64,000 nt of DNA. Source: Escherichia coli. Its GTDB lineage: Bacteria > Pseudomonadota > Gammaproteobacteria > Enterobacterales > Enterobacteriaceae. The notes under the pieces were generated by a model, which saw only the letters and a list, made by a program, of their open reading frames with translations, was not told where the DNA came from and searched no databases. Below are positions 2,688-4,112 of the stretch, piece by piece. The translations under genes were made by a program, and so were the position numbers. The stretch lies in NCBI RefSeq assembly GCF_003991155.1, contig NZ_CP031293.1; one strand, 5' to 3'. How positions within the stretch are numbered: position 1 is the stretch's first letter; each line of letters begins with the position of its first letter.

Positions 2688-4112
2688 CTACGCAAGCTTA
2701 GGAAAGGTAGCAACTTTATCGCGCTGCTGGCTTTCCGCGCTTCGCGGAACTATCTGCTTTAGGTCGCTAATGAAGCACTCCTGCCAGTGGTTAATATCGT
2801 TTTTCACGATAACGTCCAGCATCTCTGCATGACGGGAAATACGTTCCGCCAGCGACATAGTCAATGCACGATCCAGCGCAGCTGCAACTTCGTCACGATC
2901 GTAGGGGTTAACAATTAACGCCGACGTTAACTCGTTTGCCGCTCCCGCAAATTGCGAAAGAACAAGAACGCCCGGATTGGCTGGGTCCTGAGCGGCAACA
3001 TACTCTTTTGCCACCAGGTTCATCCCGTCACGCAGTGGCGTCACTAAGCCCACGTCAGAGTAACGGAATATTTTCATCAGTAATTTACGGTCAAAATGCT
3101 GATTCAAATAATAAAGCGGCGTCCAGCCTAATTGCCCGTATTTACCATTAATTCGTCCAGCTTCATTTTCGAGCTGATGACGAATATCCTGATAGGCTTG
3201 CACATCACCACGCGACGTTGGTGCAATCTGGGTATAACGAATTTTACCATGATGCTGCGGATATTTTTCCAGCAACGCTTCATAGGCGAGAAAACGCTCT
3301 GGCAAACCTTTGGAATAATCCAGCCGTTCGACAGAAAAGATATTTTGTACGTTTTTCAATTCCGCTTTAAGTTGCGCCAGTTTTGGCGGCAGTGGCCCGG
3401 CAGCCTGTTTGGCTATTTCTTTCGGCTCAATGCCAATCGGGTAAACTTCCGTTCGAAATGCTTTGCCCCAGGCTGTATGGCTTTTTGCGCTACGCGTCGT
3501 GACGCGGGTCAGGTTAGAAAGGCAATCCAGGAACGCCAGACGATCGTTTTCTGTCTGGAACCCCAGCAAATCATAATCACAAAGCTGTTCAAGCAAGGTG
3601 TCATATGTCGGCAGCGCGTTGAAGATTTCCGGTGTCGGGAAAGGAATATGCAAAAAGAAACCAATGCGATTATTCACCCCACGTTTGCGTAATTCATGCG
3701 CAAAGGGCAACAGGTGATAATCGTGGATCCAGATAATGTCATCGTCTTGCAACAGCGGCAGTAATTTATCTGCCAGCAACGCATTTACGCGTAGATAGCC
3801 ATCCCAGGCAGGACGCTGAAATTGCACCAGATCGAGCCGATAATGAAAAGCGGGCCAGAGAACGGCATTGGAGAATTTGTTGTAGTATTCGTCAAGGTCC
3901 TGTTCGCTGAGGTTAAAAGAGGCCCACGTAATGTTACCCTTTTTCACCTTTTTTAGCGGCTGATCCTCATTCCCTGTTTCACCGCTCCAGCCAAACCACA
4001 GTCCACCTGCGGCTTTCAGTGCCCCCAGTATGCCAACGGCAAGGCCACCGGCACTGGCGGCGTGCTCGTCTGGTGGTGCAATCCGGTTAGATACTACGAC
4101 TAAACGACTCAT
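2688..4112 (-). CDS. otsA: Trehalose-6-phosphate synthase
   Basis: ORF matches recalled OtsA; start set at MSRLVVVSN (474 aa). Confidence 0.95.

Follow-up and report, generated by a model that had tools for sequence, protein, structure and literature searches.

Two long same-strand gene overlaps in Escherichia coli, otsB/otsA and dcm/vsr: a conserved arrangement with a probable contribution of upstream to downstream translation

Do the two long gene overlaps in this stretch of E. coli DNA reflect help given by translation of one gene to that of the next, or are they by-products of where the upstream reading frames end? The genes otsB and otsA serve trehalose synthesis and share 26 nt; dcm and vsr serve cytosine methylation and the repair of its deamination damage and share 20 nt. 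A reading made from the letters of the window (the whole 64,000-nt stretch of DNA analysed) had taken both overlaps as signs of translational coupling in known and intact gene pairs. Our analysis indicates, with a probability of roughly 0.8, that otsB-otsA and dcm-vsr are two bicistronic units whose overlaps are normal and conserved in E. coli, and in which translation of the downstream gene is helped by that of the upstream gene. Both overlaps have long been known in K-12, whose form they keep here.

The window is the reverse complement of positions 1630524-1694523 of NZ_CP029747.1 (E. coli 2016C-3878) and differs from that strain by 3 mismatches in 64,000 positions, at window positions 8134, 22970 and 23922. 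For the window as a whole, gene coordinates were obtained by mapping the RefSeq/PGAP annotation of this near-identical strain onto it. The PGAP coordinates of otsB, otsA, dcm and vsr in 2016C-3878 were identical, and all four genes were free of pseudogene flags. The features of both junctions are listed in Table 1, together with the Rfam matches.

Table 1. Coordinates (window positions) of the two overlapping gene pairs, their junction features and the Rfam matches.
Feature	Coordinates	Strand	Basis
otsB CDS, trehalose-6-phosphate phosphatase, 266 aa, GTG start as in K-12	4087..4887	-	ORF, Pfam, mapped RefSeq
otsA CDS, trehalose-6-phosphate synthase, 474 aa, ATG at 4112-4110	2688..4112	-	ORF, Pfam, PDB
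otsB/otsA overlap, 26 nt, otsA in +1 frame	4087..4112	-	ORF listing, direct reading
otsA Shine-Dalgarno (SD) AGGAG, within otsB codons, 8-nt spacer to ATG	4121..4125	-	direct reading
dcm CDS, DNA cytosine-5 methyltransferase, 472 aa	51248..52666	-	ORF, Pfam DNA_methylase and DNA_meth_N
vsr CDS, very-short-patch repair endonuclease, 156 aa, ATG at 51267-51265	50797..51267	-	ORF, Pfam, PDB
dcm/vsr overlap, 20 nt, vsr in +1 frame	51248..51267	-	ORF listing, direct reading
vsr SD-like AAGAGG, within dcm codons, 6-nt spacer to ATG	51274..51279	-	direct reading
Predicted mRNA hairpin, 61 nt, enclosing vsr SD, vsr AUG and dcm stop	51238..51298	-	folding
Rfam match	45564-45650	-	
Rfam match	53998-54087	+	
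Rfam match	14306-14605	-	

The positions and lengths that the sequence-only reading had assigned to the overlaps (4087-4112, 26 nt; 51248-51267, 20 nt) were correct to the base in the ORF listing and on direct reading, and the paired genes do lie in different frames, each downstream gene being +1 relative to its upstream gene. The otsB stop codon, TAA at 4089-4087, lies inside the otsA codons Ser8-Asn9 (TCT AAC) of a VVSNR motif, and the dcm stop codon, TAA at 51250-51248, lies inside the vsr codons Asp6-Lys7 (GAT AAG). That the arrangement is a known one was borne out by the alignment with K-12. In the RefSeq annotation of MG1655, otsA (1980188-1981612) and otsB (1981587-1982387) overlap by the same 26 nt, vsr (2030448-2030918) and dcm (2030899-2032317) overlap by the same 20 nt, and the overlaps themselves are identical at every base. 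Over the junctions, 160/161 bases match K-12 at otsBA and 161/161 at dcm/vsr. The K-12 gene order araH-otsB-otsA-uspC is present in the window with the 26-nt junction. OtsA differs from the K-12 sequence in PDB by one residue (Q79K), Vsr differs from that of K-12 by a single substitution (E128A), and Dcm is identical with K-12 Dcm at 468/472 residues (99%). The dcm-vsr pair of K-12 is reportedly the very-short-patch repair module of Sohail/Bhagwat and of Dar & Bhagwat 1993. According to the literature, the otsBA genes form an RpoS-dependent operon (PMC2744996), and dcm is transcribed together with vsr (PMC12907096).

The four genes are all intact, as had been claimed, and carry the expected domains; the evidence is the Pfam domains found in every protein and the unflagged PGAP annotation. 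OtsB carries the HAD-type Trehalose_PPase domain (PF02358) over residues 18-231 (E = 1.9e-56), OtsA carries Glyco_transf_20 (GT20, PF00982; E = 1.4e-155), Dcm carries PF00145 and PF18284, and the Vsr domain (PF03852) spans residues 2-74 of Vsr. A reassignment of start codons that abolished the overlaps, named beforehand as the outcome that could overturn them, was not upheld, since PDB chains, Pfam profiles and SD spacing back the annotated starts. If annotation had created the overlaps, otsA and vsr would really start downstream of the upstream stop codons, and vsr does have an in-frame ATG at codon 14, past the dcm stop. However, the chain of PDB 1cw0, which Vsr matches, starts with Ala2, and residue 2 is also where the Pfam profile starts; because Vsr without residues 1-14 is weaker both as an endonuclease and in repair (PMC2715241), Met14 is not the functional start. 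In-frame candidates also lie near the otsA start, GTG 4121 and ATG 4118, though they would lengthen the overlap and not remove it; they sit on the SD and 2 nt from it, respectively, and are not conserved in other genera. An otsA start past the otsB stop would lose the conserved VVSNR motif. OtsA matches PDB 2wtx/1uqt across residues 1-474, chain 1gz5 begins at Ser2, and the alignment with Burkholderia homologues starts at residue 1; crystal-structure chains include the OtsA N-terminus, which homologues with as little as 48% identity still share. SD spacing suits the annotated ATGs of otsA and vsr only. Wrong start codons were thus ruled out by the N-termini of PDB chains, Pfam coverage, conserved N-terminal peptides and SD spacing. 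The start codons being sound, we consider it extremely improbable that the overlaps are artefacts of annotation.

According to the mapped RefSeq annotation, the window has 47 co-directional pairs of adjacent genes, and 14 of these overlap, with lengths of 1, 1, 1, 1, 4, 4, 4, 4, 4, 8, 8, 14, 20 and 26 nt; otsB/otsA and dcm/vsr are the longest same-strand overlaps. Overlaps of -4, -1 and -8 also dominate the counts for E. coli genome-wide (PMC10666635), in agreement with the window. The next in length are a 14-nt overlap of yecU and yecF (18305-18318) and overlaps of 8 nt each between fliF and fliG (35216-35223) and between fliG and fliH (36204-36211), all on the same strand. The downstream gene is always in the +1 frame in overlaps of at least 8 nt (8, 8, 14, 20 and 26 nt), and the 1-nt and 4-nt overlaps are in the other phase.

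Of 5426 complete E. coli genomes, 5417 matched a 100-nt probe for the junction of otsB and otsA (5371 at >=99% identity), the dcm/vsr junction was found in 5319/5426, and the sampled junction variants retain the annotated overlaps. As judged from gene calls, the otsBA overlap was also 26 nt in 6/6 other Enterobacteriaceae loci, those of E. albertii, Citrobacter rodentium, a metagenomic one, Klebsiella, Leclercia and Cronobacter (otsA identity 81-92%), and the otsA SD AGGAG was kept 8 nt before the ATG in all six (L088-L093). In more distant otsB-otsA pairs otsB still lies immediately upstream, with junctions of 0, 4 or 13 nt, and a tight junction (0 to -26 nt) is retained even in homologues of 48-63% identity.

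For dcm and vsr, one genome was taken per species, which gave 80 Enterobacteriaceae loci, and GTG starts were corrected by inspection for the overlap counts. A long dcm ORF overlaps vsr in 56 of these loci: by exactly 20 nt with TAA in 48, by 17 nt in 4, by 14 nt in 2 and by 35 nt in 2. The genes adjoin without overlap, with a strong SD in the spacer, in 3 loci of the 80 including that of Cedecea, and about 0.9 kb separates them in the 4 loci of Buttiauxella. In Klebsiella indica (L039:1453-1620) only about 200 nt of dcm are left, with a deletion inside them; this remnant still stops at the same TAA, 20 nt inside vsr, which is intact. Within the 1.6 kb upstream of vsr (only 80 nt in L087), no Dcm-like hit was found in 16/80 loci. 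Apparent orphan vsr genes with strong SDs were seen in Kosakonia, Phytobacter, Klebsiella oxytoca, Pseudescherichia vulneris and others; the orphan loci with vsr at position 1601 are L031, L034, L037, L038, L048, L060-L062, L074, L077, L078, L080, L084 and L086. The dcm-vsr overlap is limited to some genera, namely Escherichia, Citrobacter, Salmonella, Klebsiella, Enterobacter, Lelliottia and relatives; in other Enterobacteriaceae vsr is non-overlapping or orphan and has stronger ribosome-binding sites. The overlaps are neither chance nor artefact: other species conserve their lengths, and structures and Pfam confirm the downstream N-termini. A specific overlap is nevertheless not required for function, since distant otsBA junctions vary and some genera have non-overlapping dcm and vsr genes.

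The lengths of 26 and 20 nt are fixed because the upstream TAA sits in conserved codons of the downstream gene, Ser8-Asn9 of otsA and Asp6-Lys7 of vsr. Stop codons concealed in conserved downstream codons thus explain the exact lengths. In Siccibacter Asp6 is GAC, so that the TAA is lost and dcm extends to a 35-nt overlap. The C-terminal tails of OtsB and Dcm lie beyond the Pfam domains and are variable among genera except where the downstream gene constrains them. Overlaps commonly originate by 3' extension of the upstream frame, and the TAA pattern of otsBA and dcm/vsr fits such an extension, a view that draws on established knowledge.

The way in which upstream translation may help the downstream gene can be proposed as follows. 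On a shared mRNA, the downstream gene would use its own SD and ATG, placed within the upstream gene's last 7-9 codons, and the upstream frame would continue until the TAA within the highly conserved downstream codons. Ribosomes finishing the upstream gene would traverse and open the downstream start, terminating 17-23 nt past its AUG, and downstream translation would thereby be helped by upstream translation. For vsr, the literature supports dependence on dcm translation: according to PMC4444293, which cites Dar & Bhagwat 1993, a nonsense mutation in codon 45 of dcm (dcm-6) removes vsr activity as well. In principle, Rho-dependent polarity of transcription, and not translational coupling, could account for this polar effect. 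No paper on translational coupling of otsBA was found in the literature searched. The claim that overlap indicates coupling was only partly supported: dcm/vsr has the published dcm-6 genetics on its side, and no experimental backing was found for otsBA. Dependence of otsA on otsB translation is plausible but unproven, because the strong otsA SD probably also permits independent initiation.

It is possible, though rather unlikely, that the overlaps have no function of their own: after loss or drift of the upstream stop codon the frame ran on to the next TAA, and otsA and vsr initiate at their own SDs, independently of their neighbours. The conserved AGGAG of otsA, strong, ideally spaced at 8 nt and in an A-rich unstructured context, could support independent initiation. 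Its duplex with the anti-SD has an energy of -6.9 kcal/mol against a window median of -6.1. Coupling becomes less efficient with longer overlaps, between -4 and -25 nt, and was absent at -25 nt, in reporter studies of synthetic constructs (2025 review PMC12548453), so that an overlap of 20-26 nt is a poor predictor of coupling by termination and reinitiation. The stop/start spacings here, -26 and -20 nt, fall outside the -4/-1 class of coupled pairs. Overlap length alone is no proof of translational coupling, especially at 20-26 nt. The varying junctions of distant otsBA pairs, the adjacent but non-overlapping genes of Cedecea and others, and the generic variation of the OtsB and Dcm tails likewise agree with neutrality. 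Three observations stand against it. A dcm nonsense mutation leads to loss of vsr function (PMC4444293). The tight otsB-otsA junction is maintained in distant homologues. The SDs of overlapped vsr genes are weaker than those of free-standing ones: the median was -8.2 kcal/mol for vsr without an overlapping dcm vs -4.95 kcal/mol for overlapped vsr (Mann-Whitney p = 0.0009), which fits a partial reliance of vsr on ribosomes arriving from dcm.

Other signs that might set these start sites apart were also looked for. The vsr SD, with a duplex energy of -5.8 kcal/mol, is ordinary for the window, and the start-site opening energies of otsA and vsr rank at the 73rd and 65th percentile among 71 window genes; unusual occlusion of the ribosome-binding site or a weak SD at otsA or vsr was rejected, both genes being ordinary against these 71. 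Consensus scans of the junctions gave no promoter-like or terminator-like sites beyond chance between the paired genes, and the same scans thus gave no sign of internal promoters that would uncouple otsA or vsr. The RNA structure of the otsBA junction was not significant (z = 0.12 and -0.68). A small 7-bp hairpin (ACUAUGA / UCGUAGU; 4092-4116, minus strand) surrounds the AUG of otsA, its end lying 3 nt short of the stop codon of otsB; it was insignificant against shuffles, and coding constrains both of its arms.

At dcm/vsr a stricter form of dependence can be imagined, in which the predicted 61-nt hairpin hides the SD and AUG of vsr and only ribosomes finishing dcm open it. Folding of the 71-nt junction gave -26.4 kcal/mol and z = -3.1, a value reached by 0/200 shuffles, and z = -3.4 on repeat; the GG of the vsr SD pairs with the CC of codon 2, the dcm UAA is in the 3' arm, and the junctions of close Escherichia relatives give z = -2.3 to -3.9. 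However, RNAalifold returned no consensus structure for the junction over 49 species, only 69% of cells were paired in the comparison, and the covariation controls were equivocal. The median z of 48 orthologous junctions was -0.32, and 4% of the control tiles within dcm-vsr reach z <= -3. A 111-nt stretch of the same junction gave z of just -1.69, and, as noted, the vsr start site opens at ordinary cost. Coupling by RNA unfolding is accordingly judged unlikely. A conserved hairpin masking the ribosome-binding site was discarded: the E. coli fold looked significant but did not withstand the comparative tests. The hairpin appears, from the sequences compared, to be confined to Escherichia, and its function there is doubtful. 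That this Escherichia-only structure (51298-51238) would make Vsr synthesis strictly dependent on ribosomes completing dcm is a quite improbable proposition; if true, the hairpin could play a part in the control by growth phase that has been reported for Vsr in relation to Dcm.

Since fusions of about 726 aa are found elsewhere, a programmed +1 frameshift joining OtsB to OtsA was considered. The otsBA overlap showed no obvious motif, slippery or stimulatory, for such a frameshift. Some distant homologues of about 726-754 aa, with the OtsA domain from about residue 280, look like OtsB-OtsA fusions in operon order; in other distant homologues, of about 730 aa, OtsA is N-terminal. The long OtsA-domain homologues listed are P0126, P0157, P0183, P0184, P0188, P0197 and P0210.

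Several other features of the window were recorded. The genes vsr (minus strand) and yedA (plus strand) are convergent and their 3' ends share 12 nt at 50797-50808, as in K-12; dgcQ and yedP are also convergent, with a 4-nt overlap at 46660-46663. At 50367-50397 yedA contains an in-frame 12-bp tandem duplication, 2.6 copies of TGGCTCGGTTTA, which adds GSVY and gives a protein of 310 aa vs 306 aa in K-12. The Rfam matches comprise the sRNAs DsrA and RseX and three tRNAs (Gly, Cys and Leu per RefSeq), as expected for the region. An intact porin gene of 357 aa lies at 54399-55472 on the plus strand, between hchA and drpB. The corresponding locus of K-12 is presumably yedS, a pseudogene. A tyrosine recombinase/integrase gene (63103-64000, plus strand) lies past zinT and extends off the end of the window, and an integrase fragment flagged as a pseudogene (32869-33018, plus strand) lies between fliE and yedK. 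These two suggest mobile-element junctions.

The preferred reading, two conserved bicistronic units with downstream translation helped by upstream translation, can be set beside known systems. Pairs coupled by termination and reinitiation, with -4/-1 overlaps (ATGA, TGATG), are likewise co-directional, with a downstream gene that starts within the upstream one or at its end, and lie on one transcript, as the literature states of both pairs here; the overlaps here, 20 and 26 nt, are far longer. Tight coupling at -4/-1 nt overlaps is said to have been found by Huber et al. 2019, 2023. The coat-lysis pair of phage MS2 (-50 nt, coupled by RNA unfolding; PMC12548453) differs in that no conserved inhibitory structure was found at the otsBA or dcm/vsr junction; it resembles them in its long overlap, within which a terminating ribosome could open the start and not occlude it. 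The closest counterparts are those of K-12. Its otsBA operon (b1897-b1896) shares the gene order, the 26-nt overlap, the frame and the SD, with only scattered substitutions elsewhere in the genes and no difference in structure, and its dcm-vsr pair (b1961-b1960) has the same 20-nt, +1-frame overlap and the same junction, with nothing of consequence different.
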